From Deltaproteobacteria bacterium (GTDB lineage Bacteria > Desulfobacterota > Dissulfuribacteria > Dissulfuribacterales > DYLC01): 64,000 nucleotides of DNA. Below, piece by piece: positions 38,572 to 64,000 of this stretch. The notes beneath the pieces were generated by a model that ran no database searches, was not told the origin of the DNA, and saw nothing but the letters and a program-made list of their open reading frames with translations. A program made the position numbers and the translations under genes. The DNA is taken from assembly GCA_028695735.1 (NCBI GenBank), contig JAQVIJ010000001.1:582447-646446 (forward strand). The letters run 5' to 3'. Every line of letters begins with the position of its first letter. Position 1 is the stretch's first letter.

Positions 38572-39210
38572 TTATATTTTGGCAAACAGTTTCTGCTTCA
38601 TGATATTGAATTCGTCCAGAGATATCAGGCCTTTTTCGTAAAGACTGCTCAGCCGTTCCAGATGTGTCAGCGCATCGTTTCCGCTCTGTGTCTGCGCATA
38701 ATAGGCCGACGGCGGTATGTCGGATGGATAGAGGAATATGGGCTGGCTGGGCTGGACCGGCGGTTCCGTCTGTTTCAGGCGGTCGAGTTCCTCGATCCGC
38801 TTCAAAAGCGCCTGGTTTTCTTTGAGCATCAGGATCCTCTCGCAGGCATTCTGCACACAGATCTCCAGTTCGTCCAGTCGAAACGGCTTGCGGATGTAAT
38901 CGTAGGCCCCGCCGTGAATGGCCTCTATGGCGGTGTCGAGGGAGGCATAGCCTGTCATGATGATTATCATGATCTCTGGATAGAGTTCCTTGGCCTTTTT
39001 CATAACCTCCATACCGTCTGCGCCCGGCATCATGAGGTCGGTGATGAGCAGGTCGTATGGTTGTGATTGGAGGGCTGCTATGGCATCCAGGCCGTTATAG
39101 ACGATCTGGAGCCGTCTTCCCGGCTGGGAAAGGCTGTTTACGAGCAGATCCCCTGTGGCCTTTTCATCTTCTGCGATAAGGATTCTGATGGATGGGCGTT
39201 CATCTGTCAT
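38572..39210 (-). CDS. Response regulator with receiver domain and a C-terminal SHOCT-like domain
   Basis: 212 aa. REC motifs (ILIAEDE, LLITDLMMPGADG, MTGY, KPF). The C-terminus LERLSSLYEKGLISLDEFNIMKQKL resembles SHOCT. Confidence 0.8.
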   Translation of the reverse strand: MTDERPSIRILIAEDEKATGDLLVNSLSQPGRRLQIVYNGLDAIAALQSQPYDLLITDLMMPGADGMEVMKKAKELYPEIMIIIMTGYASLDTAIEAIHGGAYDYIRKPFRLDELEICVQNACERILMLKENQALLKRIEELDRLKQTEPPVQPSQPIFLYPSDIPPSAYYAQTQSGNDALTHLERLSSLYEKGLISLDEFNIMKQKLFAKI

Positions 39211-52775: not shown

Positions 52776-53906
52776 TTACTTGAGCAGGTTTTTCATGGCC
52801 TCTCGAGAGGCCAGTTCCCGGCGTTCTTCATATGCCCTTCTGGCGATTCTCACATCCTCAACAAAATACTCCAGTTCCCTCATGGTCAGGGCCTGCGGGC
52901 CGTCACACAAGGCCATTTCAGGCCTGGGATGGCACTCCACCAAGACCATATTTGCGCCTGCGATGACACCTTGGGCGCAGGCTTGAAACATGTCGAGTAT
53001 GCCGTCGCTGCCCCTGTCTTTTGTGCCCACAGCATGGGTTGGGTCCACACACACAGGCAGACGGGTCAGGCGCTTGACCACGGGCACATGAATGAAGTCC
53101 ACCAGATTGCGGTGGGGGTCGCCCAGACGGGTCTTTACACCGCGAAGACATACGATGATCTTGCGATTGCCCTCGCTGGCGATGTATTCGCAGGCATTCA
53201 AGGCCTCTTCCAGGGGTAGGCCCATGCCTCGCTTGTAGAGAACCGGGTATTCCTGCTGGGCCCCCACCTCTTTGAGCAGTTCAAAGTTTTGCGCATTTCG
53301 AGTGCCTATTTGCAGCATTACGCCCGTGGGTCTCCCAGCCTTTTCCAGGGCCTTTTGTATCTCTTCTATATGAATTTCCTTCAACACCTCCATGGCTACA
53401 ACTCGAATGCCGTATTTACCTGCCAGTTCAAAGAGCCAGGGCAGACAGGAGGCCCCATGGCCCTGAAAGTCATAGGGGCTGGTGCGGGGTTTGTATGCAC
53501 CCATTCGAGCGGTCTGTATGCCGAGGCGTTGCAGGTTCTTGAATACGATCTCCACATGTTCACGCGTATCCACCGCACAGAGCCCAAGGAATATGTGAAA
53601 GCTGTCTTGATTGAAGAGAAGGCCGTTGTATTCAAAACCCAGTTGGTCGAGCTGGCCTCCATGCCTGCCGATCTGCCTGTATTTGCTGGAGACCCGCACC
53701 ACGCGTTCCACGCCGGGCATGCGCTCGATGTGTTCTCCTGGAATGTCGTGCGTGGGGCCGATGAGGTATATCTCTGTCACTACGCGGCTGGTGCCCCGAA
53801 CACCCGAAACAGATGTCTTCAGGCCGGGGAAAAGGCTGAGGTACTCCAGAAGATTGGACATTTCAGGGCCGTTTGGGTCTATCTCGGGTTTCATTATGAT
53901 GATCAT
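52776..53906 (-). CDS. 3-deoxy-7-phosphoheptulonate (DAHP) synthase, type I-beta with an N-terminal regulatory domain
   Basis: 376 aa. KPRTSPYDFQG and DPTHA motifs. The roughly 80-aa N-terminal extension (MIIIMKPE...) is like Thermotoga-type enzymes. Confidence 0.85.
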   Translation of the reverse strand: MIIIMKPEIDPNGPEMSNLLEYLSLFPGLKTSVSGVRGTSRVVTEIYLIGPTHDIPGEHIERMPGVERVVRVSSKYRQIGRHGGQLDQLGFEYNGLLFNQDSFHIFLGLCAVDTREHVEIVFKNLQRLGIQTARMGAYKPRTSPYDFQGHGASCLPWLFELAGKYGIRVVAMEVLKEIHIEEIQKALEKAGRPTGVMLQIGTRNAQNFELLKEVGAQQEYPVLYKRGMGLPLEEALNACEYIASEGNRKIIVCLRGVKTRLGDPHRNLVDFIHVPVVKRLTRLPVCVDPTHAVGTKDRGSDGILDMFQACAQGVIAGANMVLVECHPRPEMALCDGPQALTMRELEYFVEDVRIARRAYEERRELASREAMKNLLK

Positions 53907-54080
53907 AGGGCATCCTTGAATTACAGGGAGATTATTAAAATCGCATTGAGAGCAAGATATTTCGAATGATTGCAGGTGTCAATATGAACTCAAATTTCGT
54001 GCCTGAATTTATTGCAACACGATAACATCCCAAATTGTGCGAACAAATGCCGGCTGCCCTTGCCCCAAAATTGTTTCCTT

Positions 54081-54267
54081 TAACCCCACCCCGTCCCTCC
54101 CCTTGTCAGGGGAGGGTGATAACCTGCAACTCGCGCCGGAAGATAACACTATCCGTGCCATCGTAGGGGCGACCGGCCGGTCGCCCCTACTTCCCCCCTG
54201 ATCTTCCCCCCCCCTGATAAGGGGGGATTGAGAGGGGTTGGGGGGATTGAGGGGGGTTGTTTTTGAT
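54081..54267. repeat. Composite G/C-tract hairpin repeat element, copy B, with an embedded 28-nt perfect palindrome
   Basis: TAACCCCACCCCGTCCCTCCCCTTGTCAGGGGAGGGTGATAACC (54081-54124). Palindrome GTAGGGGCGACCGG/CCGGTCGCCCCTAC (54163-54190). Then CTGATAAGGGGGGATTGAG(A/G)GGGGTT with a partial internal duplication, ending GTTGTTTTTGA as in copy A. Confidence 0.85.
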
Positions 54268-54356
54268 TCTGCCTCATGGTTGTTATTCCCTCACCAAATA
54301 GGCATGGTGGCTATGGGGATCGAAAAGAGAAAATTTTAGGAATGCTTGTTTTTTGC

Positions 54357-54385
54357 TTGACATGGCCAATCAAATATGCTTAATA
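54357..54385 (+). promoter_or_regulatory. Candidate sigma-70 promoter of the perR-like gene
   Basis: TTGACA (54357-54362), a 17-nt spacer, TTAATA (54380-54385). Confidence 0.5.
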
Positions 54386-54397
54386 ATAATCATTCAC
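54379..54397. promoter_or_regulatory. Fur/PerR-box-like operator overlapping the perR -10 element (autoregulation candidate)
   Basis: CTTAATAATAATCATTCAC matches 14 of 19 positions of the classical Fur box GATAATGATAATCATTATC. Confidence 0.4.
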
Positions 54398-54414
54398 ATC
54401 AAGGGGGTGTAAAT

Positions 54415-54825
54415 TTGAACACAAGTAGTGGAAAATTACGTAACACAGCCCAACGGACTATTATTTTAAATGCCTTAAGGGGCTTAAAAACCCATCCGAC
54501 TGCGGATGAGCTGTATGAAGTGGTCAAAAAAGAGATGCCGAAGATCAGCCTTGGCACCGTCTATCGCAATCTGGTGATGCTGGCAGAGATAGGCATGATT
54601 CGAAAGCTGGAGACAGCCGGCAAGCAGATGCGTTTTGATGGCGACATCTCTGCCCATGTGCACATCAGGTGTAGCAGATGCGGCAGAGTGGATGACATCT
54701 GGGCAGACCCCATATCCATTCCAGAGCACATGAAGACCATTGACTTTCGCGGCTACCAGGTGACCGGCTATGCCCTGGAATATGAGGGAATCTGTCCTGA
54801 TTGCGCCAAAAAAGGCATGAACTGA
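54415..54825 (+). CDS. perR: Fur-family peroxide-responsive repressor (PerR-like)
   Basis: Fur fold (ISLGTVYRNLVMLAEIGMI) with HIRCSRCG...CPDC sites. The ORF-track ATG at 54376 lies inside the predicted promoter, so I propose TTG 54415 (or GTG 54409) after the AGGGGG RBS. Confidence 0.75.
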   Translation: MNTSSGKLRNTAQRTIILNALRGLKTHPTADELYEVVKKEMPKISLGTVYRNLVMLAEIGMIRKLETAGKQMRFDGDISAHVHIRCSRCGRVDDIWADPISIPEHMKTIDFRGYQVTGYALEYEGICPDCAKKGMN

Positions 54826-54910
54826 TTTCAATTTTTGCATCTTGTCACTGTTTTTTGCCATAATTTTGCCCGTCTTGTCATTTGGATGTGGTAAAGGGCT
54901 TATTCTGCGC

Positions 54911-54925
54911 TTATAATTTTTATTG
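54911..54925. promoter_or_regulatory. PerR-box-like site overlapping a TATAAT -10 upstream of rbr
   Basis: TTATAATTTTTATTG against the B. subtilis PerR box TTATAATNATTATAA (11 of 14). TATAAT lies at 54912-54917. Confidence 0.4.
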
Positions 54926-54959
54926 TCTTTTGATTTGAAATTTACATACAGGAGGAGAC

Positions 54960-55535
54960 ATGAAAAAACTCAAAGGAACCCAGACCGAACGCAACATACT
55001 GACCGCCTTTGCCGGTGAATCCCAGGCACGAAACCGCTATACCTTTTTTGCCGGCCAGGCCAAGAAGGATGGCTATGTGCAGATAGCCGATATCTTTGAG
55101 GAGACGGCCAACCAGGAGAAGGAACACGCCAAGAGGCTCTTTAAGCTGTTGGAGGGCGGCGAGGTGGAGATTCAGGCCGCCTTTCCCGCCGGCATCATCT
55201 CCAATACCTATGACAATCTCATAGCCGCAGCCAATGGAGAAAACTATGAACAGACCATCATGTATCCTGGTTTTGCAAAGATAGCCATAGAGGAGGGCTT
55301 TCAGGAATTGGCCTGTATCTTTGAGGCCATAGCCGTGGCCGAACGCCAGCACGAGAAGCGCTATAGGGAGCTGGCTGCCAACATAGTGGCGGATCGGGTC
55401 TTCAAGCGGGATACAGAGGTGGTCTGGCGCTGCCGCAACTGCGGTTATCTGCATAAGGGTAGTGCCGCTCCGGAAAAGTGCCCTGCCTGTGCCCATCATA
55501 AGGCACATTTTGAGCTTTTGGCAGAGAATTGGTAG
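54960..55535 (+). CDS. rbr: Rubrerythrin
   Basis: 191 aa. Diiron four-helix bundle (E..E..H pairs: [29 protein letters not shown]) and a C-terminal rubredoxin-like CRNCG...CPAC. Confidence 0.95.
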
Positions 55536-55593
55536 TTTTTTGTATTTGCAACTCAAACCATATCAAACTAAATCAAAAAAGGAGGTACTTGTC

Positions 55594-56232
55594 ATGTGTG
55601 AGTTTGTTACCAACGAGGCACCTAACTTCAAGGCAACCGCTGTAATGGCCGACAATTCCTTTAAGGAGATCAGCCTGTCGGACTATAGGGGTAAGTATGT
55701 GCTCCTGTTCTTCTATCCGCTGGATTTTACCTTTGTCTGCCCTTCCGAGATACTGGCCTTTGACAGGGCGGTTGACGAATTTCAAAAGAGAAACTGTGAG
55801 GTGATCGGTGTGTCTGTGGACTCCCATTTCACTCACTTGGCCTGGAAGGAGACCCCTGTGGAAAAGGGCGGCATCGGTTCTGTGAGATTTCCATTGGTGG
55901 CCGACCTGTCCAAGTCCATCTCCCGTGACTATGGCGTGCTTTTGGAAAGCGGCATAGCCCTTCGCGGCCTGTTCCTCATAGACAAGGACGGCATTATTCG
56001 CCACATGCTGGTCAATGACCTGCCCCTGGGCAGAAGCGTGGATGAGGCCCTGAGAGTCCTGGATGCCCTCCAGTTTGTGGAGAAGCACGGAGAGGTCTGC
56101 CCTGCCAACTGGAAGCCTGGCGAAGAGGCCATGAAGCCTACCAAGGAGGGGGTGGCGGAGTACCTGGCCAAACATGCCAAGCCGGCTGCCTCCTGTTGCT
56201 CCACCGGCGGCGGTTCCTGTTGCTGTTCATAG
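55594..56232 (+). CDS. Typical 2-Cys peroxiredoxin (AhpC/Prx1 type) with a Cys-rich C-terminal tail
   Basis: I trimmed the start to ATG 55594 (GGAGG at 55581). The peroxidatic site is DFTFVCPSE and the resolving site is GEVCPANW. An extra tail follows: [18 protein letters not shown]. Confidence 0.9.
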
Positions 56233-56260
56233 TTACAGATTCCATTCATAAGGAGGACAT

Positions 56261-57601
56261 ATGAAGAGACTTCTATCAGTTATGGCTGTGAGTGCTGTGG
56301 TGGCGGCGCCTCTGTTTGTAGGCGCGGCAGAGATGGGCAAGTTCAAGTATGACGACTTTCAAAAACCCACTGACTGTGGCATGTGCCATACAGAGATATA
56401 TCAGGAGTGGAAGCAGGCCATGATGTCCCAGTCTTTTACCCATGAGTGGGATGAGGTGGAGTACTTCAAGTTGGCCCTGCCTCATTCTCAAAAATTGGAG
56501 AAGGTCTCTGGCGTAAAGGGGGGGTGTGTCGCCTGCCATGGGCCGCTGGCCTTTTTGTCAGGTGATATTCCGCCCAAGCCCGTAAAGGCCGGAACGCGCG
56601 CCAACGAAGGTGTCTCCTGCGAGATATGCCATAACATCACAGGCTCCACCGAGCAGACGCCCTTTAACTTCAGCTTTGTGATTCAGCCAGGGGATGTAAA
56701 GCAGGGGCCCAGAAAGGATGTGAAGTCTCCGGGCCATGGCGTGAATTTCTCTGAGTTTACTCGCAGTCCTGAGCTCTGTGCCACCTGTCACGATGAGCAG
56801 AGCCCTTACGGGGCATGGGTCAAGGAGACCTATCGGGAATGGAAGGCAGGCCCTTACAGCAAAGAAGGTGTGCGTTGTCAGGACTGCCACATGTATCGGG
56901 CGCCTGGCGTGCCTGGCATGGGTGGTCAGGAGCGCCCTGACATGGCGCATCACACCTTTCATGGCAGCCACTTCCCCAGCAAGCTGGCAGGGGCCATTGA
57001 TCTGGCCCTCTATGCAGAAGAGGATGAGGTGTCGCCTGGTAAGGGCCTCACAGTGCGTTCAGAGCTCTTTAACGGCAAGGCAGGGCATTATGTGCCATCC
57101 GGTTCCACTGAGGAGCGCATGCTCTGGTTAGAGGTGTGGCTCACCGATGCCAAAGGCAAAAGATATGCCTTAAAGGTGCAGCCCAAGGGCTTTAAGGGTG
57201 AGGAATACACGGTGGCTGATTCCAAGGCCATGGCCTATCAGGACATAGGTGAGATCATGGACCTGGCTAACTTTAAGGGCCTGAAGCGGGACGGCAATGT
57301 GCCCGATGGCTCCCGTATCTTTAGGCGCCCGTTCTTCAATCCCAAGGGCGAGATGACCGTAGCCCAGTGGTATACTGCCAAAAACGATGTGGTGGACTAT
57401 CGCATAGGGCCTCGTGAGACCAAGATTGAACACTTTAAGCTGGAACTGCCCAAGGATGTGGCAAAGGGCCAGGCCACTGTGACGGCACGGCTCCTCTATA
57501 GCCAGATTCCCAGTTCTGTAGGTGAGTTTTTCAAGCTCTCCAAGGAGGAATACGCCCCCATTTTGGTCAATGAGGCCAGAGTGATGGTGAATGTAAAATA
57601 G
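56261..57601 (+). CDS. Secreted pentahaem c-type cytochrome (paralogue of the Sec-cytochrome at 23734)
   Basis: 446 aa. Signal peptide ([10 protein letters not shown]) and five CXXCH motifs (CGMCH, CVACH, CEICH, CATCH, CQDCH). The conserved motif is [22 protein letters not shown], followed by a C-terminal non-haem domain. Confidence 0.8.
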
Positions 57602-57616
57602 TTGTTACAAAAGGCA

Positions 57617-57645
57617 CTTCGGCCTGTCTTTGGGGCAGGCCGAAG
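57617..57645 (+). other. Intra-operon 10-bp stem-loop between the cytochrome gene and dfx
   Basis: CTTCGGCCTG / CAGGCCGAAG with a 9-nt loop. No T-run follows. Confidence 0.5.
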
Positions 57646-57686
57646 CGAATTCAATCCCAAAACATACCTTGAAAGGAGGTATTCCA

Positions 57687-58061
57687 ATGACCGAAAGATT
57701 ACAGATTTACAAGTGTGAGATCTGTGGAAACATGGTGGAGATGGTGCATACAGGCGCGGGCCAGCTGGTCTGCTGTGGTCAGCCCATGAAGCTCATGACA
57801 GAAAATACAGTGGATGCGGCTAAGGAAAAGCATGTCCCTGTCATCGAAAAGGTAAGTGGCGGCTATAAGGTCAAGGTGGGCAGTGTAGCCCATCCCATGG
57901 AGGAAAAACACTACATCGAGTGGATCGAGCTCATTGCGGATGGCAAGGCATATAGGGAATTTTTGTCCCCTGGCCAGGCACCTGAGGCCTTTTTCTGCAT
58001 TCAGGCCGACACCGTGACCGCACGGGAGTTCTGCAATCTCCACGGTCTCTGGAAGGCATAA
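57687..58061 (+). CDS. dfx: Desulfoferrodoxin (2Fe superoxide reductase)
   Basis: I trimmed the start to ATG 57687 (AGGAGG upstream). The N-terminal desulforedoxin motif is [27 protein letters not shown]. The neelaredoxin domain has [14 protein letters not shown] and a C..H site. Confidence 0.9.
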
Positions 58062-58141
58062 AAGGGCGTTTTGTTGACAAGGCGGCGGCAGTTATCTGCC
58101 GCCATGTGAAATGGGGTTTTACCCATAAATAAGGAGTGCTT

Positions 58142-58663
58142 ATGTTGAGTCCTAAATTAGAAGAGGCATTAAATCAGCAAATAAACGCCGAATTGTATTC
58201 GGCATATCTATATTTTTCCATGGCAACCTATCTTTCTTCCATTGATTTGGCCGGCTGTGCCCATTGGATGCATGCCCAGACGCAGGAGGAGCTGCTTCAT
58301 TCCTCCAAGATGTATGAGTATGTAAATGAGCGAGGCGGCCGCGTGGTTTTGAATGCAATAAAGGCCCCCAAGACTCAATGGGCCTCCCCCCTTGAGGTGT
58401 TTGAAGACGCCTATCGGCATGAGCAGCATGTGACGAGCCTCATAAATAGCCTCATGGAGTTGGCTATCTCAGAAAAGGACCACGCCACTCAGATCTTTTT
58501 GCAGTGGTTTGTCTCCGAACAGGTGGAGGAAGAGGCCTCTGCCAATGGTGTGGTGCAGCGTATGAAGCTGGCTCAGGCCTCGCCTGGCGGGCTTTTTATG
58601 ATAGACAAGGAGTTATCCACTCGTCCCGTGCCTTTTGTCCTGGCAACAGCCAATAAGGCCTAA
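58142..58663 (+). CDS. ftn: Ferritin (non-haem, Ftn-type)
   Basis: 173 aa from ATG 58142 (AAGGAG 5 nt upstream). Ferroxidase residues sit in NAELYSAYLY, EELLHSSK and QWFVSEQVEEE. Confidence 0.9.
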   Translation: MLSPKLEEALNQQINAELYSAYLYFSMATYLSSIDLAGCAHWMHAQTQEELLHSSKMYEYVNERGGRVVLNAIKAPKTQWASPLEVFEDAYRHEQHVTSLINSLMELAISEKDHATQIFLQWFVSEQVEEEASANGVVQRMKLAQASPGGLFMIDKELSTRPVPFVLATANKA

Positions 58664-58686
58664 GAATTTATTGAAGGAGATTTTAT

Positions 58687-59082
58687 ATGAGCAGACCTGA
58701 AGATATGTGGCAGTGTCAGACCATCAATTGCGGTTACATCTATGACCCTGACAGAGGTGATAGAAAGGGCAAGATTCCCAAGGGGACCCGCTTTGAGGAC
58801 CTCCCCGATGACTGGAAGTGCCCTGTATGTGGGGCGGGTAAGTCCATGTTCAGGCCATTGGCCGGCCCTGGCTCGGTGATGGAGCGGGATAAACAGGAAA
58901 CTGTGGCCCCACAGGCCGATGCAGGTCCTAAGTATAGATGCAATGTCTGCGGCTATATCTATGACCCGGCGGTGGGGGATGCCTCACAGGGTGTGGCGCC
59001 TGGCACTGCCTTTGAGGCACTGCCTGAAAATTGGAAGTGCCCTGTGTGTGGCGCAAGCAAGGAGGAGTTTGAGGAGATCTGA
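58687..59082 (+). CDS. Tandem rubredoxin (CX4C-type domain plus canonical CX2C domain)
   Basis: 131 aa. Domain 1 is [14 protein letters not shown]...WKCPVCG, with four residues between the first Cys pair. Domain 2 is [12 protein letters not shown]...WKCPVCG. Confidence 0.85.
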
Positions 59083-59083
59083 C

Positions 59084-59437
59084 ATGACGGCCCAACGAAC
59101 GGTTATATTTGCGTTTAAGGGAGAGCCCATGTGTTTTATACATGTGCTTTTAAATGCCTTGGACATGCAGAATAAGGGCATGGCATGTGAGGTCGTTATA
59201 GAGGGTGAGGCCACCAAACTCCTGCCTGAACTGGAGCAACCATCCCATTTTTTGCATGACCTTTATACACAGGTCAAGACAAAGGGTCTGATAACGGCTG
59301 TGTGTAAGGCCTGTTCCAAGAAGATGGGGGTCCTTGAGCAGATTCAGGCCTTGAGTCTGCCTTTAAGTGACGAGATGTCAGGACACCCTTCCATGGCCAG
59401 GTTTATTTCACAGGGTTTTCATGTGATTGTAATGTAA
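59084..59437 (+). CDS. DsrE/DsrF-like (DrsE_2) small protein
   Basis: 117 aa, starting 1 nt after the rubredoxin stop. The pattern is VIFAFKGEPMCFIHVLLNAL...VVIEGEATKL...ITAVCKAC. Confidence 0.5.
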   Translation: MTAQRTVIFAFKGEPMCFIHVLLNALDMQNKGMACEVVIEGEATKLLPELEQPSHFLHDLYTQVKTKGLITAVCKACSKKMGVLEQIQALSLPLSDEMSGHPSMARFISQGFHVIVM

Positions 59438-59465
59438 TTTTACGTAAAAAAGGAGCAAAAAGGCA

Positions 59466-60662
59466 ATGATTACAGAGATCAAGAAGGATATCTATTGGGT
59501 GGGCGCCATTGATTGGACCATCAGGGACTTTCACGGCTACTCCACCTATGAAGGCACCACTTATAACGCCTATCTCTTGAAGGACGAGAAGACGGTACTC
59601 TTTGACACGGTGAAGAAGTCCAAGATGAGTGACCTGGTGCACCATATCCGTTCCCTTACCGATCCTCAAAAGATAGACTATATCGTGGTAAACCATGTGG
59701 AGATGGATCACTCAGGTTCATTGCCTGAGATGATAGACCTCATCAAGCCTGAGAAGGTGATCTGTTCCAGCATGGGCAAAAAGGCCCTGTTGGACCACTT
59801 TCATCGAGAGGATTGGCCCTATGAGGTGGTAGCGCCGGGTCAGGTGATCAGCGTGGGCAAGCGTTCCATTCAGTTCATCGAGACCCGTATGCTGCACTGG
59901 CCTGACAGCATGTTTTCTTATATTCCAGAGGAAAAGCTCCTCATCTCCAGCGATGCCTTCGGCGAACACTGGGCCACCAGCGAACGCTTTGACGACGAGG
60001 TGGACTTCACCACCTTGATGCAGCACAATGCCAAGTATTATGCCAACATACTGCTGCTCTACTCACCCCTGGTCGCTAAGCTCATCGAAAATGTGAAAAA
60101 GCTCGGCCTTCAGATCGATATGATCGCCCCTGACCACGGCCTCATCAAGCGTAAACATGTGGCCGAGATCCTGCAGGCATATGCAGACTGGGCCAACCAC
60201 AAGGCCAAGAAAAAGGCGGTGGTGGTCTATGACACCATGTGGCACAGCACAGAGATGATGGCCAAGGCAGTGGCGGACGGCCTCATGCGTGAGGGCGTGA
60301 GCGTAAAGCTCATGGACCTGCAGGTCTGCCACAGAAGCGATGTGATGACAGAGGTCCTGGACGCCAAGGCGGTTGTCCTGGGCTGTCCGACCCTGAACAA
60401 CGGCCTGCTGCCACGCATGGCGGGCTTTCTCATGTATATGCGGGGGCTTAAGCCAGGCGGAAAGATCGGCGCTGCCTTTGGTTCCTATGGCTGGAGCGGC
60501 GAGGCGGTGAAGCTCATGAACCAGGCCATGGAGGAGATGAAGTTCGATATCGTGCACGAGGGGATTCGCGTAAAATATGTCCCTGTGCACGAAAACCTCA
60601 AGGAATGCGTGGAATTGGGCAAAAAGGTCGGACAGGCTGTAAAGGCCGCTTTAGGAGAGTAA
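59466..60662 (+). CDS. Flavodiiron protein (rubredoxin:oxygen oxidoreductase / FprA type)
   Basis: 398 aa. Metallo-beta-lactamase-like diiron motif NHVEMDHSGS and a C-terminal flavodoxin domain (VVVYDTMWHSTE..., GCPTLNNG). Confidence 0.9.
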   Translation: MITEIKKDIYWVGAIDWTIRDFHGYSTYEGTTYNAYLLKDEKTVLFDTVKKSKMSDLVHHIRSLTDPQKIDYIVVNHVEMDHSGSLPEMIDLIKPEKVICSSMGKKALLDHFHREDWPYEVVAPGQVISVGKRSIQFIETRMLHWPDSMFSYIPEEKLLISSDAFGEHWATSERFDDEVDFTTLMQHNAKYYANILLLYSPLVAKLIENVKKLGLQIDMIAPDHGLIKRKHVAEILQAYADWANHKAKKKAVVVYDTMWHSTEMMAKAVADGLMREGVSVKLMDLQVCHRSDVMTEVLDAKAVVLGCPTLNNGLLPRMAGFLMYMRGLKPGGKIGAAFGSYGWSGEAVKLMNQAMEEMKFDIVHEGIRVKYVPVHENLKECVELGKKVGQAVKAALGE

Positions 60663-60997
60663 TGCCTATGCGTATCAATATAGACAAAAATGTGGTGGAA
60701 TTTATTCCTGAAAATCAGCAGGAGACCGCCTCCTTGGAGGTGCTTTGGCGCATGGTCTTGGACTGTGCCGGCGGCAACAACAAGAGTTTGAGCCCCATCG
60801 GCGAGTATGTGCCACAAAAGGAGAACCTGGCTCGCTTTGTGATAGAGGGGGCTGCCGGCGGAAAGACCGTGTTTTCCGAGATGGTATCTGAGGCAGAGTG
60901 CACCTACCTTTGCACCATCTGTAATAAATATATCCATATACATGTAGGGCAGGCCATTCCATACTGTTGTGGGCGCCTGATGGAGCCTGTGGATTAA
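60662..60997 (+). CDS. Hypothetical protein with a C-terminal desulforedoxin-like Cys4 domain
   Basis: 111 aa. The ATG overlaps the FDP stop (TAATG). The C-terminus YLCTICNKYIHIHVGQAIPYCCGRLMEP parallels the Dx motif of dfx in this window (YKCEICGN...VCCGQPM). The N-terminal ~75 aa has no motif I recognise. Confidence 0.55.
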   Translation: MPMRINIDKNVVEFIPENQQETASLEVLWRMVLDCAGGNNKSLSPIGEYVPQKENLARFVIEGAAGGKTVFSEMVSEAECTYLCTICNKYIHIHVGQAIPYCCGRLMEPVD

Positions 60998-61133
60998 ATG
61001 GGAAGACTAACAAAGTCGCAAGACTGCCTTTTACATTCCGATCAAGCAAGGTTCAAAGGGCATGTGGTGTTTTTAAGCGTCTTCTAATCTGGGCTTGGGG
61101 TCCCCGAAGGAAGATGAGTGGCCGGTGTTTGTG

Positions 61134-61186
61134 TTTGTGGAATAGACGCCACGAGGGCGCTGGCCACACATTACCGTCATAAAAGG
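61134..61186. repeat. Left copy of a ~53-bp inverted repeat pair flanking the 61319-63699 gene pair
   Basis: TTTGTGGAATAGACGCCACGAGGGCGCTGGCCACACATTACCGTCATAAAAGG is about 80% identical to the reverse complement of 63739-63792. Confidence 0.7.
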
Positions 61187-61195
61187 TGGTTATAT

Positions 61196-61232
61196 GTCGA
61201 AGCAATCTCCCGTTTTCAAGGGGATTGCTTCG
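61196..61232. repeat. 13-bp-stem hairpin element (CGAAGCAATCTCCC...GGGGATTGCTTCG) followed by GCTTCGCTCGCAATGAC
   Basis: The long imperfect inverted repeat is visible in the sequence. Its reverse strand translates to the SLRAKRSNP-type spurious peptide seen in ORF 61053..61265. Confidence 0.6.
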
Positions 61233-61318
61233 CTTCGCTCGCAATGACACCAAACTCATCGTCAAGCCAGGATCGCACTTAAGAGATTGCCTTTAATCGC
61301 CCAAAAACAAAATTTGTT

Positions 61319-61885
61319 ATGGCCAAATTCAGACACCTTTCCCATCAGCACATCAAAAAGGCCTTTTTGACTCAGGGGGTTGAGGAGTTGCTGGCTCAAT
61401 TGTCGGTTTTCCCCGTGAAAACTGCCCTTCATTCGGTGCTCTCCGCCCTCTATTCCACAGATGAAGCCGTTCGCTTCAAGTCAGTGACCCTCTTTGGCCT
61501 TTTGATGTCCAAATTGGCTCAAGAGGATATGGAGGCCGCCCGGCAGGTGATGCGCAGGCTGATGTGGAGCCTGAATGACGAATCCGGAGGTATCGGCTGG
61601 GGTGCACCCGAGGCCATGGCAGAGGCCATGGCCATGGACGCAGGTTTGGCACAGGAATATGCGCATATCCTGCTTTCCTATGTATGGGAGGAAGGGAACT
61701 ATTTGGAGTACCTACCCTTGAGACGAGGGGCGCTTAAGGGCATTGCCAGGCTTGCATGCGCCAGACCCCAGTTGTTAAATGCCCTTCAGGCACAGGAGCG
61801 CCTGCAACCATACCTAAATGATGCAGACGAGGAGTCCAGAGAGGCTGCTCAAAGCGGTCTTGCTTGTTTGAGACAGGCCAAATGA
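61319..61885 (+). CDS. Helical-repeat (HEAT/armadillo-like) hypothetical protein
   Basis: 188 aa, predicted all-alpha. No catalytic motif. The stop overlaps the start of the downstream sigma-54 activator (ATGA). Confidence 0.5.
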   Translation: MAKFRHLSHQHIKKAFLTQGVEELLAQLSVFPVKTALHSVLSALYSTDEAVRFKSVTLFGLLMSKLAQEDMEAARQVMRRLMWSLNDESGGIGWGAPEAMAEAMAMDAGLAQEYAHILLSYVWEEGNYLEYLPLRRGALKGIARLACARPQLLNALQAQERLQPYLNDADEESREAAQSGLACLRQAK

Positions 61886-63699
61886 AATCCATACTATTTT
61901 TTTCCTCAGACATGTTGTGTGCCGCCATGGCTGCTGCCATGGCCCATGCAAGGGCCACACAGGACCTGAAGATAGTGGCTGGCTGTGTTGGTAATCCTGT
62001 GATTACTCAGGAGATTCTGCAGTTCATGCGGCAGAAGGGGCTTAAAATCCCCTCCGATATTCTGAGCTTGGAGGATGTGGAGTCTCGCGTCTTTGACATC
62101 GTCATTCATGTAGGACGGGCAACTCTATCCCCTAAATTCTCAGGCAACCCCATTTTGGTGCAGTGGAATCTGAAGCAAGAGGCTGGTTACACAGAAGGGT
62201 GCTGTGGCGCCCTTTACTCCCCACTAAATGAACTGGTGACGCACCTCTTTGAGGAGGGTTATCTTGCCGCCCTGCTTCAGGCCAGAAGAAACCTCTTTTT
62301 GATTCTGGATAACCTGCGTGAGGGCATCATGGCCCATGACCTGAATCGTCGTATCTTTTATTTCAATAAGGCAGCAGAGGAAATAACGGGCTATAAAAAA
62401 GAAGAGGTGTTGGGCAGGGACTGCCACGAGGTATTTCCCAATAAGTTTTGCGGCAAGAGTTGTGGATTTTGTAATGGAATAAACAAGATACCCCTCTCTC
62501 CCTACTCTTATGACATCTCGGTTCAGACCAAGGACGGTAGCCAGAAGCGCCTTGGCATGTCTGTGGTGCCCATCTTTGCCTTTGAAGGCGAGGAGAAAAA
62601 GACAGAGGAGGTCTTGGGGGTGCTGGCCACCTTTGTGGACAATACTCGGGAGTTTGAGTTGTCTTCCCGTTTGGGGGAATTGAAGGAGTTTGCAGGTATA
62701 GTGGGCAATTCACCTGCCATGCTGGAACTCTATGAGATCATCAGGGATGTGGCCAATAGTGACATACCGGTTTTGATACAAGGGGAGTCTGGAACAGGCA
62801 AGGAACTGGTGGCTGCTGCCATACATAACGAGAGCCACAGGAGTCAACACCTCTTTGTGCCGGTCAATTGTGCGGCACTGCCCGACAGCCTGCTGGAGAG
62901 TGAGCTCTTTGGCCATGTAAAAGGTGCCTTTACCGGTGCCATTCGTGACAAAAAGGGGAGGTTTGAGTTGGCCGACGGCGGCACCCTTTTTTTGGACGAG
63001 ATAGGCGATATCAGCCCTGCCATGCAGGCCAAGCTTTTGCGAGTCTTGCAGGACGGGGTATTTGAGCGTGTGGGCGGCGAAAAGAGCATTCGAGTGAATG
63101 TGCGCATCATCTCAGCCACCAACAAGGACCTGCGAGAGGAGGTGAAGGCAGGCCGATTCAGGGAGGACCTGTTTTATCGCATCTGTGTCATGCCCATTTG
63201 GCTTCCTCCCCTGCGAGAGCGTGCTGCGGATATCCCGCTCCTGGTGGAACACCTGCTGGAACGCATCAAAAAGACCAGCTCCCTTGCCTATGAGCCGTCT
63301 GTTACTCATGAGGTTATGGATATCTTTTTGCAATATCACTGGCCTGGAAATGTGAGGGAGTTGATGAACTGCCTGCAGTATGCTGTGGTGCGGGCACGAG
63401 GCAGGGCTATGGAGCCTCAGCACCTGCCGTCGGCCATTTTATCTGCGCTGAAAGATTCAGGGCCCATGTCTGTGCAAGCCAGACCATTCAACACATCAGG
63501 CCAGCCTTTGGAAAGGAGACTCAAAGGAAATGAGTCTTTATTCCTGCGGCCCCGCACCTCCATTGTAACACCTCAACGAATTCAAGAGGCCTTGCAAAGG
63601 TTCAATGGCAACAGGACATTGGCGGCCAAGGCCCTTGGAGTCAGTCGCGCAACCTTTTATCGCCTGTTAAACAAATATGACTCAACATTTCGCGATTGA
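61882..63699 (+). CDS. Sigma-54-dependent transcriptional activator with a degenerate LMW-PTP/ArsC-like N-domain and a Cys-rich PAS domain
   Basis: 605 aa from ATG 61882. The N-domain ILFFSSDMLCAAMAAAM aligns to the CX5R P-loop of LMW phosphatases but lacks the Cys and the Arg. The PAS domain has CHEVFPNKFCGKSCGFC. The AAA+ domain has GESGTGKE and GAFTGA. A C-terminal HTH follows. Confidence 0.8.
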   Translation: MKSILFFSSDMLCAAMAAAMAHARATQDLKIVAGCVGNPVITQEILQFMRQKGLKIPSDILSLEDVESRVFDIVIHVGRATLSPKFSGNPILVQWNLKQEAGYTEGCCGALYSPLNELVTHLFEEGYLAALLQARRNLFLILDNLREGIMAHDLNRRIFYFNKAAEEITGYKKEEVLGRDCHEVFPNKFCGKSCGFCNGINKIPLSPYSYDISVQTKDGSQKRLGMSVVPIFAFEGEEKKTEEVLGVLATFVDNTREFELSSRLGELKEFAGIVGNSPAMLELYEIIRDVANSDIPVLIQGESGTGKELVAAAIHNESHRSQHLFVPVNCAALPDSLLESELFGHVKGAFTGAIRDKKGRFELADGGTLFLDEIGDISPAMQAKLLRVLQDGVFERVGGEKSIRVNVRIISATNKDLREEVKAGRFREDLFYRICVMPIWLPPLRERAADIPLLVEHLLERIKKTSSLAYEPSVTHEVMDIFLQYHWPGNVRELMNCLQYAVVRARGRAMEPQHLPSAILSALKDSGPMSVQARPFNTSGQPLERRLKGNESLFLRPRTSIVTPQRIQEALQRFNGNRTLAAKALGVSRATFYRLLNKYDSTFRD

Positions 63700-63738
63700 A
63701 TTGGCCAGAAGACAATAACCCCTTTCCACATTAACTGC

Positions 63739-63792
63739 CCTTCATGGCGGGGAATGTGTGGCCGGCGCCCTTCACAGCGCCTATTCTACAAA
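63739..63792. repeat. Right copy of the inverted repeat pair
   Basis: CCTTCATGGCGGGGAATGTGTGGCCGGCGCCCTTCACAGCGCCTATTCTACAAA is the reverse complement counterpart of 61134-61186. Confidence 0.7.
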
Positions 63793-64000
63793 TACTTCAC
63801 CGCTGCCGCCCAAGAAGTCTCATAGATCTTTTTTGTTTTTCAGATTCAATCGTGGATTTTAGGATTGAACGCCGGAGAATGTGCCTTTTGGTGCATATAA
63901 CTATTGATTATCAAAAATAATTCTTTTTTTCACAAGAATCTTTTTATTTGTATCAATGAATGACAATTCATTTTTTTCTTGACATTCCTGCAATCACCAT

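Follow-up and report, generated by a model that had tools for sequence, protein, structure and literature searches.

A conserved gene block headed by a PerR-type repressor gene and probably serving oxygen defence in a Dissulfuribacterales-like anaerobe

Introduction

Operons for defence against reactive oxygen species (ROS) that are headed by the gene of a PerR-type repressor are textbook for anaerobes, in which they normally comprise three to five genes. Here we describe a much longer relative, located on the forward strand of a 64,000-nucleotide (nt) stretch of chromosome from a Deltaproteobacteria bacterium of the order Dissulfuribacterales (assembly GCA_028695735.1, contig JAQVIJ010000001.1, positions 582,447 to 646,446; hereafter the window, numbered from its first letter). 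Its genes encode, in order, a PerR-like regulator (perR), rubrerythrin (rbr), a 2-Cys peroxiredoxin (prx; Prx), a secreted pentahaem cytochrome (cyt), desulfoferrodoxin (dfx; Dfx), ferritin (ftn), a double rubredoxin (rd), a DsrE-like protein, a flavodiiron protein (fdp; FDP) and a small desulforedoxin-like (Dx-like) protein (dxl), followed by a HEAT-repeat protein and a sigma-54 activator.

The closest described systems are the PerR-linked operons of delta-proteobacteria, namely perR-rbr-rdl and rbo-rub-roo of Desulfovibrio vulgaris, perR-rbr-roo of Geobacter, and the perR2 gene of G. sulfurreducens with hsc-grx-ccpA-rbr (Rodionov et al. 2004, PMC545781). Like them, the window block starts with perR, has an operator over the −10 element and continues with genes for rubrerythrin, ROO and carriers of the rubredoxin type; periplasmic c-type haem proteins, which are peroxidase homologues, already occur together with cytoplasmic rubrerythrin in the perR2 cluster of Geobacter. 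The delta-proteobacterial units hold three to five genes, however, against 11-12 in fixed order here, and the window adds a peroxiredoxin, desulfoferrodoxin and ferritin, besides a differently folded pentahaem cytochrome and members of three or four families that are uncharacterised; its operator is moreover of the Desulfotalea type, not of the Desulfovibrio or Geobacter type. A second relative is the self-repressed four-gene PerR operon rbr-perR-rbo-CD630_08280 of Clostridioides difficile (bioRxiv 10.1101/2024.09.17.613384), which similarly combines PerR, rubrerythrin, desulfoferrodoxin and a rubredoxin-domain protein in converting superoxide and H2O2 to water, but in which perR is internal, FDP, peroxiredoxin, ferritin and cytochrome are missing, and a glutamate-dehydrogenase-like rubredoxin fusion provides a reductase of its own that the window block lacks. 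The block is a large conserved variant of these known PerR-linked ROS operons and works like them; no description of it was found in a literature search of incomplete coverage.

Results

Gene order of the block is conserved in Thermodesulfobacteriota

The initial annotation of this DNA had presented the block as a one-off concatenation of ten genes in one genome. Comparison of gene order shows instead a conserved unit. Alignment of cytochrome homologues yielded 80 loci from species-representative genomes, in which the twelve window proteins were located by tblastn; 39 loci had enough flanking DNA. All ten core genes (perR, rbr, prx, cyt, dfx, ftn, rd, fdp, dxl and the HEAT gene) lie on one strand and in the same order in 17 of these 39 cytochrome-anchored loci, and at least nine of the ten keep that order in 22 of the 39. 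Recurrence of one order in many genomes places the clustering far outside what chance would produce, and the block is a conserved synteny unit of Thermodesulfobacteriota; the labels of its carriers include Dissulfuribacterales, Thermodesulfobacteriota, Thermodesulfatator and Desulfobulbus. The two nearest loci (L007 and L008), with cytochromes 87-90% identical to that of the window, belong to a metagenome-assembled genome (MAG) of Dissulfuribacterales and a MAG labelled 'uncultured Desulfobulbaceae'.

Around the fixed order, the loci vary in a gene of 83 amino acids (aa) for a winged helix-turn-helix (wHTH) protein between perR and rbr, in an extra gene for a protein with only the superoxide reductase domain (147-149 aa) between cyt and dfx, found in many loci, in a second multihaem cytochrome gene after cyt, in separate rubredoxin genes and in the presence or absence of the DsrE-like gene. 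The HEAT gene follows fdp or dxl in essentially all complete loci, and three look-ups anchored on distant members of the HEAT family each returned the arrangement multihaem cytochrome-...-rubredoxin-FDP-HEAT. Thermodesulfatator has a reduced version (Prx-like-rd-cyt-cyt2), and Dissulfurimicrobium (CP085041) carries the block followed by cydAB.

In the window, the ten genes first recognised occupy 54415-60997, all on the + strand, with intergenic gaps of −1 to 134 nt; every open reading frame (ORF) and gap claimed for them was reproduced from the sequence. The end at 60997 is nevertheless too early, since two further genes belong to the conserved block. The genes, whose family identities held when examined with Pfam and NCBIfam, that of the DsrE-like protein marginally and that of the Dx-like protein by profile-profile alignment and motif only, are as follows:

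54415-54825, + strand: perR, PerR-like Fur-family repressor, 136 aa, TTG start (Pfam FUR, 96 bits)
54960-55535, + strand: rubrerythrin, 191 aa (NCBIfam RuberyRbr NF045767, 295.1 bits against a cut-off of 200; Pfam Rubrerythrin and RUBY_RBDX)
55594-56232, + strand: typical 2-Cys peroxiredoxin, 212 aa (Pfam AhpC-TSA, 139 bits, and 1-cysPrx_C)
56261-57601, + strand: secreted pentahaem c-type cytochrome, 446 aa (signal peptide, five CXXCH, C-terminal Ig-like domain)
57687-58061, + strand: desulfoferrodoxin, 2Fe superoxide reductase, 124 aa (TIGR00320, 224.8 bits against a cut-off of 146.9)
58142-58663, + strand: non-haem ferritin, 173 aa (Pfam Ferritin, 142 bits; NCBIfam, 129 bits, under cut-off)
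58687-59082, + strand: fused double rubredoxin, 131 aa (Pfam Rubredoxin in two stretches, 157 bits; NCBIfam RubredRD NF045768, 153.6 bits against 90)
59084-59437, + strand: DsrE-like protein, 117 aa (Pfam DsrE PF02635, 23.1 bits against 22.7, residues 33-116 only)
59466-60662, + strand: class-A flavodiiron protein, ROO-type, 398 aa (Pfam ODP, 81.6 bits, and Flavodoxin_1, 70.7 bits)
60668-60997, + strand: dxl, Dx-like small protein, 109 aa (C-terminal desulforedoxin-type CxxC...CC)
61319-61885, + strand: DVU0298-family HEAT-repeat protein, 188 aa (NCBIfam NF045662, 175 bits against a cut-off of 75)
61882-63699, + strand: sigma-54 activator, 605 aa (Pfam PAS, AAA+ and HTH_8; N-terminal domain without a family)

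The recomputed gaps measure 134 nt (perR-rbr), 58 (rbr-prx), 28 (prx-cyt), 85 (cyt-dfx), 80 (dfx-ftn), 23 (ftn-rd), 1 (rd-dsrE-like), 28 (dsrE-like-fdp) and −1 nt (fdp-dxl), the last becoming +5 nt if the dxl ATG at 60668 is used. This is probably the dxl start; it yields the 109-aa product called on the identical public contig (L001), the homologues being about 108 aa long. The ferritin gene starts at the ATG at 58142. A Shine-Dalgarno sequence lies 5' of every block gene, base composition is constant over the block, and in the ORF listing of 52-64 kb the run of + strand genes continues without a break from 54.4 to 63.7 kb. The flanks are ordinary chromosome, with genes for a 2-oxoacid:ferredoxin oxidoreductase, pyrB/pyrC, a two-component system and DAHP synthase.

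The block encodes no rubredoxin reductase, thioredoxin, AhpF-type peroxiredoxin reductase, catalase, superoxide dismutase or cytochrome bd, so that its earlier description as the whole anaerobe toolkit goes too far. As the DsrE-like, Dx-like and HEAT proteins supply no reductase for rubredoxin or peroxiredoxin either, electron input must be encoded elsewhere.

A conserved operator overlaps the perR promoter

Upstream of the first two genes lie the following control elements:

54357-54398, + strand: perR promoter (−35 TTGACA, 54357-54362; 17-nt spacer; −10 TTAATA, 54380-54385)
54379-54397, + strand: perR operator, 7-1-7 type, over the −10 element (19-mer; core TAATAATCATTCACA, 54384-54398)
54909-54927, + strand: candidate second promoter/operator before rbr (15-mer, 54911-54925; TATAAT, 54912-54917)

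More than 20 loci carry a 15-nt palindrome, T[G/A]ATAATnATTATCA, at 20-33 nt 3' of a TTGAC and over the −10 element and start site. With a weight matrix built from the other loci only, the window being excluded, the best score in the entire 64 kb (17.1) fell at 54384-54398, the next unrelated matches reaching 12.4; other high matches, at 38955 and 26129, lie in or beside unrelated genes and were taken as chance. The site also resembles a published one: 54379-54397 (CTTAATAATAATCATTCAC) agrees at 15 of 18 specified positions with the predicted PerR box of Desulfotalea psychrophila, GtTAATgATnATcATTAaC (PMC545781, Table 7), and is the sole such match in the window. The D. psychrophila boxes stand before roo1-roo2 and a stand-alone perR, with no supercluster (PMC545781), and both box sets are predictions. 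The Fur-box-like site that the initial annotation had placed over the perR −10 element is thus real, and perR autoregulation is well supported by its position and conservation.

The same promoter bears on the start of perR. The longest ORF would begin at an ATG (54376) that lies inside perR's own promoter, between the −35 element and the transcription start; since, in addition, the TTG at 54415 has an AAGGGGG ribosome-binding site and is kept in L007 and L008, this TTG is the real start. The resulting 136-aa product is also the one called on L001.

A second operator before rbr is plausible only. A PerR-box-like site had been reported over the rbr −10 element, and this element is indeed kept in the two nearest loci, as TATAAT or TATGAT within a conserved rbr-proximal block; the −35 element is poor, however, and the matrix gives the site at 54911-54925 a weak 9.7, rank five in the window. 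With the D. psychrophila perR site it has a common core, ATAATTTTTATT, and 13 of 19 positions. Most loci lack the site, a small wHTH gene occupying their perR-rbr gap.

Further features were noted outside these elements. In the divergent intergenic region 5' of perR (54140-54280), a perfect 28-nt palindrome spans 54163-54190 and a tandem 19-nt G-rich repeat facing a C-rich run spans 54221-54258; the region has a predicted fold of −75.7 kcal/mol (z −3.8) and no second copy in the window. Close to the end of the window, 3' of the sigma-54 activator gene, stand weak matches to a Fur/PerR box (ATTGATTATCAAAAATAATTC, scoring 5-7 with the matrix) at 63890-63935 and a TTGACA at 63979-63984; in L007 and L008 the genes next after the activator are nuoA-H.

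Stem-loops mark two gene junctions

Two stem-loops that the initial annotation had pointed out within the block both fold as stated:

57617-57645, + strand: 13-bp stem-loop after the cytochrome gene (−31 kcal/mol, z −4.1; no U tract)
58084-58103, + strand: 8-bp G+C-rich stem-loop after dfx (z −3.3; no U tract)

Judged by their sequence, neither is a canonical terminator, because a U tract is absent from both. L007 and L008 have hairpins of different sequence at the same two junctions, their other junctions measuring 0-17 nt, and this pattern fits stabilising or attenuating elements in a long transcript, sub-operons also being possible. A generic promoter scan returned no more sites than shuffled sequences; terminator-like matches exceeded shuffles in number, none of them at a block gene junction, and an Rfam scan of 53900-64000 gave one sub-threshold match, taken as chance.

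The alternative that survives best is a division into independent transcription units (perR; rbr-prx-cyt; dfx; ftn-rd-dsrE-like-fdp-dxl; HEAT-sigma54), of which only the first one or two would be PerR-controlled, with the hairpins acting as terminators and the rest expressed constitutively as in rub-roo of D. gigas. Stable hairpins at exactly two junctions, recurring at the same junctions in L007 and L008, would suit such a division, and so would the −10-like element and operator-like box before rbr and a terminator-like hairpin with a T run after dxl in L007; delta-proteobacterial PerR regulons are, furthermore, small and local, and constitutive rub-roo expression has been cited (PMC545781). 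It is at odds, however, with the lack of a U tract at either window hairpin, with the absence from the block of any convincing sigma-70 or sigma-54 promoter, the scan count not rising above shuffles, and with junctions that mostly measure 1-28 nt or overlap; in most other genomes, a gene fills even the perR-rbr gap. We therefore consider separate units a minority possibility, and one long transcript read from perR onward the better account.

The dxl-HEAT gap (60998-61318) is 321 nt long in the window, compared with 62-128 nt in L007 and L008. It holds a 13-bp hairpin (61198-61232) followed by GCTTCGCTCGCAATGAC, as well as a G+C-rich hairpin at about 61118-61167, and resembles an intergenic repeat element that has been inserted here; in L008, other gaps contain comparable elements rich in hairpins.

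The regulator resembles PerR more than Fur

Among NCBIfam models, those for PerR rank top for the regulator (105.1 and 91.2 bits, against 72 for the Fur models), and its best match in the PDB is Bacillus subtilis PerR (2FE3, E 1e-20). Alignment with 2FE3 finds the metal site (H37, D85, H91, H93 and D104) and the Cys4 zinc site with both CxxC pairs conserved at 9 of 9 positions, D104 being the Asp typical of PerR. The signal is likely, but unproven, to be peroxide rather than iron.

Were the regulator instead a Fur-type iron sensor, the block would be an iron-responsive set of iron-protein genes, ferritin included. Nearly all of its products are indeed iron proteins, the operator T[G/A]ATAATnATTATCA is a classical Fur 7-1-7 box and not TTATAATnATTATAA, the PerR equivalog cut-offs are missed, and Arg61, as in Fur, is a DNA-reading residue that fits the Fur-type half-sites of the operator; taken together, operator type and Arg61 make an iron response possible. 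Against an iron sensor stand the ranking of the PerR models over Fur, the match to B. subtilis PerR, the Asp at D104 and the make-up of the operon, which combines ROS enzymes with no iron-uptake genes; moreover, the same type of box has been assigned to PerR in Desulfotalea, before roo and perR (PMC545781). A Fur-type sensor is accordingly improbable, and a PerR-type repressor the preferred assignment.

The pentahaem cytochrome belongs to the c552 superfamily

The family profile of the cytochrome retrieved Thermochromatium tepidum c552 (PDB 5ZE8, E 5.3e-15 with hmmsearch) and, weakly, the MccSep/ExtKL structures. An AlphaFold2 model (pLDDT 86.5, pTM 0.86) was compared with the PDB by Foldseek, where 5ZE8 is the only full-length match (E 1.7e-17, TM 0.60/0.68), the rest covering the Ig-like domain only; at 19% sequence identity to T. 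tepidum c552, the predicted structure thus has the c552-type (PHC) fold. Cable-bacteria work groups c552, ExtKL and Gsu2801 in one 'PHC' family (PMC11976967). Like this superfamily (5ZE8; MccSep/ExtKL, 9WT8-9WTC; cable-bacteria sPHC/lPHC, PMC11976967), the window cytochrome has a signal peptide, carries its five CXXCH motifs in a helical domain at the N-terminus and an Ig-like domain at the C-terminus, and shares the GHxxP[ST]G loop. Unlike other members, it forms a tight subfamily in a context of ROS genes, not of ext or sulfur genes. More than 1900 homologues, 60-90% identical and unnamed, were detected at E <= 0.001; an exhaustive profile search of the superfamily gave 4258 representatives at E <= 0.001, of which 333 also pass E <= 1e-30, and at 50% identity the window subfamily collapses to 2-3 representatives.

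MccSep is a periplasmic polysulfide reductase with a His/Cys-ligated haem 2 and Sec325 on a loop of the Ig-like domain (bioRxiv 10.1101/2025.11.18.688581). In a 61-sequence alignment of the cytochrome, no Cys beyond the CXXCH motifs is conserved; U325 of MccSep aligns with the invariant Ser282, and the region of its haem-2-ligating C239 with V187-K188. Because there is no extra conserved Cys, and a Ser takes the place of Sec325, an identity with MccSep/ExtKL was ruled out; the NCBIfam ExtKL model scores 58.5 bits at a cut-off of 250. A catalytic pocket derived from the MccSep alignment (Ser282, Glu-Glu-Arg284-286 near haem 2, and Lys188 in place of the ligating Cys) was also rejected, since, among 80 superfamily representatives, R286 and the GHxxP[ST]G loop occur generally and the remaining columns show free variation.

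Two lines of argument suggest a role of the cytochrome in oxygen defence: its context, that is, the fixed position between prx and dfx and, in reduced versions of the block, the linkage to rubredoxin and Prx-like genes; and a precedent, the perR2 cluster of Geobacter, which includes genes for periplasmic haem peroxidases (PMC545781). A sulfur-compound reductase or oxidase for sulfur disproportionation, merely co-located with the ROS genes, would instead accord with the sulfur-cycling habit of the thermodesulfobacterial hosts, with MccSep/ExtKL, a polysulfide reductase, being the only characterised superfamily member (bioRxiv 10.1101/2025.11.18.688581) and with the linking of T. tepidum c552 to sulfur metabolism (bioRxiv 10.1101/2025.11.18.688581; PMC11976967). 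Such a function is doubtful, however, for a protein that has neither the haem-ligating Cys of MccSep nor its Sec/Cys, Ser282 lying opposite U325, and whose gene keeps one slot between prx and dfx in 22 of 39 loci and its rubredoxin and Prx-like neighbours even in reduced contexts.

A second, larger multihaem cytochrome (427-614 aa, Pfam Multi-haem_cyto) is encoded beside the pentahaem one in several other loci (L002, L004, L023, L034, L087 and L089) and is not found in the window.

Detoxification genes of known families

Six of the block genes encode members of well-known families. Desulfoferrodoxin yields H2O2 from superoxide, and the reduction of H2O2 and of organic peroxides falls to rubrerythrin, here with its diiron four-helix domain followed by a rubredoxin-like one, and to 2-Cys peroxiredoxin; flavodiiron proteins turn O2 into water, or NO into N2O. 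Rubredoxin domains supply the detoxification enzymes with electrons, and ferritin takes Fe2+ out of Fenton chemistry.

The translated peroxiredoxin has its peroxidatic Cys in FTFVCP and its resolving Cys in EVCPANW, and scores 238.8 bits with NCBIfam PRK15000, under the cut-off of 301. In about 19 of 32 related loci (L005, L024, L026, L028, L033, L036 and L037, for example), an in-frame TGA stands at the peroxidatic position (FTFVUPTE), and these orthologues are probably selenocysteine peroxiredoxins; gene callers split them into 48 and 142 aa. The window, L007 and L008 have Cys at this position, and among the related loci compared only these three have a Cys-rich C-terminal tail (window 56190-56229).

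Desulfoferrodoxin has both Pfam domains, the N-terminal Dx-type FeCys4 and the C-terminal neelaredoxin domain. In the double rubredoxin, an N-terminal domain of the Cx4C (Rdl/Rd-2) type precedes a C-terminal domain with the classical CxxC; the fusion is lineage-specific, most related loci having two adjacent genes of 73-77 and 53 aa. The FDP aligns over its full length with NCBIfam PRK11921 (447 bits, under cut-off) and consists of a metallo-beta-lactamase-like diiron domain and a flavodoxin domain, with no further domain.

A response to nitrosative stress, with the FDP as NO reductase and the cytochrome as NO, nitrite or hydroxylamine reductase, is the least probable of the alternatives: the best NCBIfam matches of the FDP are NO-reductase flavorubredoxin models and multihaem cytochromes are often promiscuous to nitrogen oxides (bioRxiv 10.1101/2025.11.18.688581), yet these matches fall under cut-off, a fused rubredoxin as in NorV is absent, the block contains no NorR-/NsrR-type regulator or Hcp, and superoxide reductase, rubrerythrin, peroxiredoxin and the PerR-type regulator point to oxygen species.

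Small uncharacterised members of the block

The DsrE-like label given in the initial annotation is marginal, the Pfam score exceeding its cut-off by a few tenths of a bit. The protein has no NCBIfam match, and single-sequence PDB searches with it and with the Dx-like protein returned nothing useful; its profile retrieves an uncharacterised DsrE-like structural-genomics protein (PDB 2FB6, E 0.004), the only solved relative. Its invariant residues in the alignment are C17, H20, C74xxC77 and H101, and its gene is present in only a subset of complete blocks.

For the product of dxl, the designation as a desulforedoxin-domain protein is backed only by profile-profile alignment and an invariant CxxC...CC motif. 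About 80 homologues were detected, all annotated as hypothetical; in 25 of them C33, C82, C85, C100 and C101 are invariant, with the motif CxxC-x14-CC. Aligned with the N-terminal domain of the window Dfx by hhalign, the C-terminus gives a probability of 80.7% and an E of 1.3e-5. Like that desulforedoxin domain, the last 30 residues have four Cys in register ('CCGRxME' against 'CCGQPM' in Dfx); unlike desulforedoxin (CxxC-x15-CC), the protein has a Cys spacing one residue shorter and an extra 75-residue N-terminal domain without detectable relative. It has no Pfam or NCBIfam match, PF06397 not being matched even at E <= 5, and Foldseek of the whole model (pLDDT 73.7) against the PDB found nothing below E 1. 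The gene always lies directly after fdp, at −1 to about 20 nt.

The HEAT protein belongs to the DVU0298 family, which has more than 5000 homologues, and combines an invariant RRLMWxLNDESGGIGWGAPEAMAE with an absence of Cys or His ligands; the only literature mention of DVU0298 found is a misprint for a CO-dehydrogenase locus. In protein P0244, encoded on a metagenome contig of 2181 nt, an FDP flavodoxin domain is fused in frame to a DVU0298-family protein. This was not counted as a Rosetta-stone fusion, because the fdp and HEAT genes are in different frames in all genome loci checked; either an uncommon natural fusion or an artefact of assembly could explain it.

A sigma-54 activator follows the HEAT gene

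In the window, the start codon of the sigma-54 activator overlaps the stop codon of the HEAT gene (ATGA), and L007 and L008 likewise have overlapping ORFs here; the activator, in translational coupling with the HEAT gene, follows it in the window, L007, L008 and L023. Its PAS domain has a motif, DCHExFPxKFCxxxCxFC (Cx9Cx3Cx2C), that is kept in L007, L008, L023 and a PAS-only protein of Dissulfurimicrobium (L002), in which the same N-terminal-plus-PAS module precedes cydAB; the four-Cys PAS domain may be an Fe-S or metal redox sensor. A search for sigma-54 promoters (TGGCAC-N5-TTGCW, with <=2 mismatches) gave 40 matches against 54 expected, none of them in the intergenic parts of the block, and the activator therefore has no visible target here.

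Discussion

The conserved gene order, the operator over the perR promoter and the families encoded together make it probable that this is a chromosomal defence cluster against O2 and ROS of a Dissulfuribacterales-like anaerobe, with the gene of an autoregulated PerR-type repressor at its head. This repressor, while reduced and loaded with metal, would sit on the 7-1-7 operator over the −10 element of a strong sigma-70 promoter; peroxide would oxidise the histidines of the metal site, upon which the repressor would leave the DNA and transcription would proceed from perR through the tightly spaced downstream genes, each with its own Shine-Dalgarno sequence. In the lineage of the window, a further, weaker promoter with its operator, lying before rbr, may contribute, and the hairpins after cyt and dfx would probably tune segment stability or partial termination rather than act as full stops. 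The secreted cytochrome would form a periplasmic arm, intercepting O2 or H2O2 outside the cytoplasm as their reductase or as an electron sink. The Dx-like and DVU0298-family HEAT proteins, because their genes always come after fdp, are likely dedicated flavodiiron partners, and the DsrE-like CxxC protein would be an optional accessory.

Several observations weigh against this reading. Co-transcription and peroxide induction of the block are what we infer from sequence, and a separate transcription unit could be bounded at each of four gaps, the structured ones that follow cyt (85 nt) and dfx (80 nt) and those preceding rbr (134 nt) and the HEAT gene (321 nt). The regulator misses the NCBIfam PerR equivalog cut-offs (105.1 against 180 and 91.2 against 200 bits), its residue 61, at a DNA-reading position, is Arg as in Fur and not Asn, and the operator is of Fur type, with TGATAAT half-sites, and not the B. 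subtilis-type PerR box TTATAATnATTATAA. No reductase for rubredoxin or peroxiredoxin is found among the cluster genes. In the cytochrome, finally, no catalytic residue is assignable, the candidate columns varying over the superfamily, and the nearest characterised relative is a polysulfide reductase.

A bolder proposal is that the cytochrome subfamily is a hitherto unrecognised periplasmic O2- or H2O2-reducing enzyme of the PerR regulon in Thermodesulfobacteriota that disproportionate sulfur and in their relatives, and that the Dx-like protein, as electron donor, and the HEAT protein, as scaffold or maturation factor, are obligate partners of the class-A FDP; taken jointly, these assignments are tentative. 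Were they true, they would give the first functions for three widespread uncharacterised families and would support the idea, put forward for cable bacteria, of oxygen-reducing PHC-type cytochromes.

Among relatives, the peroxiredoxin of the block alternates between a Cys form and a probable selenocysteine form, and its conserved operator and four-Cys PAS sigma-54 regulator are marked out for study. Its fixed order of 11-12 genes provides guilt-by-association evidence for four families without assigned function (the pentahaem cytochrome subfamily, the DVU0298 HEAT family, the Dx-like 109-aa family and the CxxC DsrE-like family) and offers a testable link between the c552/MccSep/cable-bacteria cytochrome superfamily and oxygen defence. 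The main value of the block lies in the functional lead that it gives for its uncharacterised conserved members.

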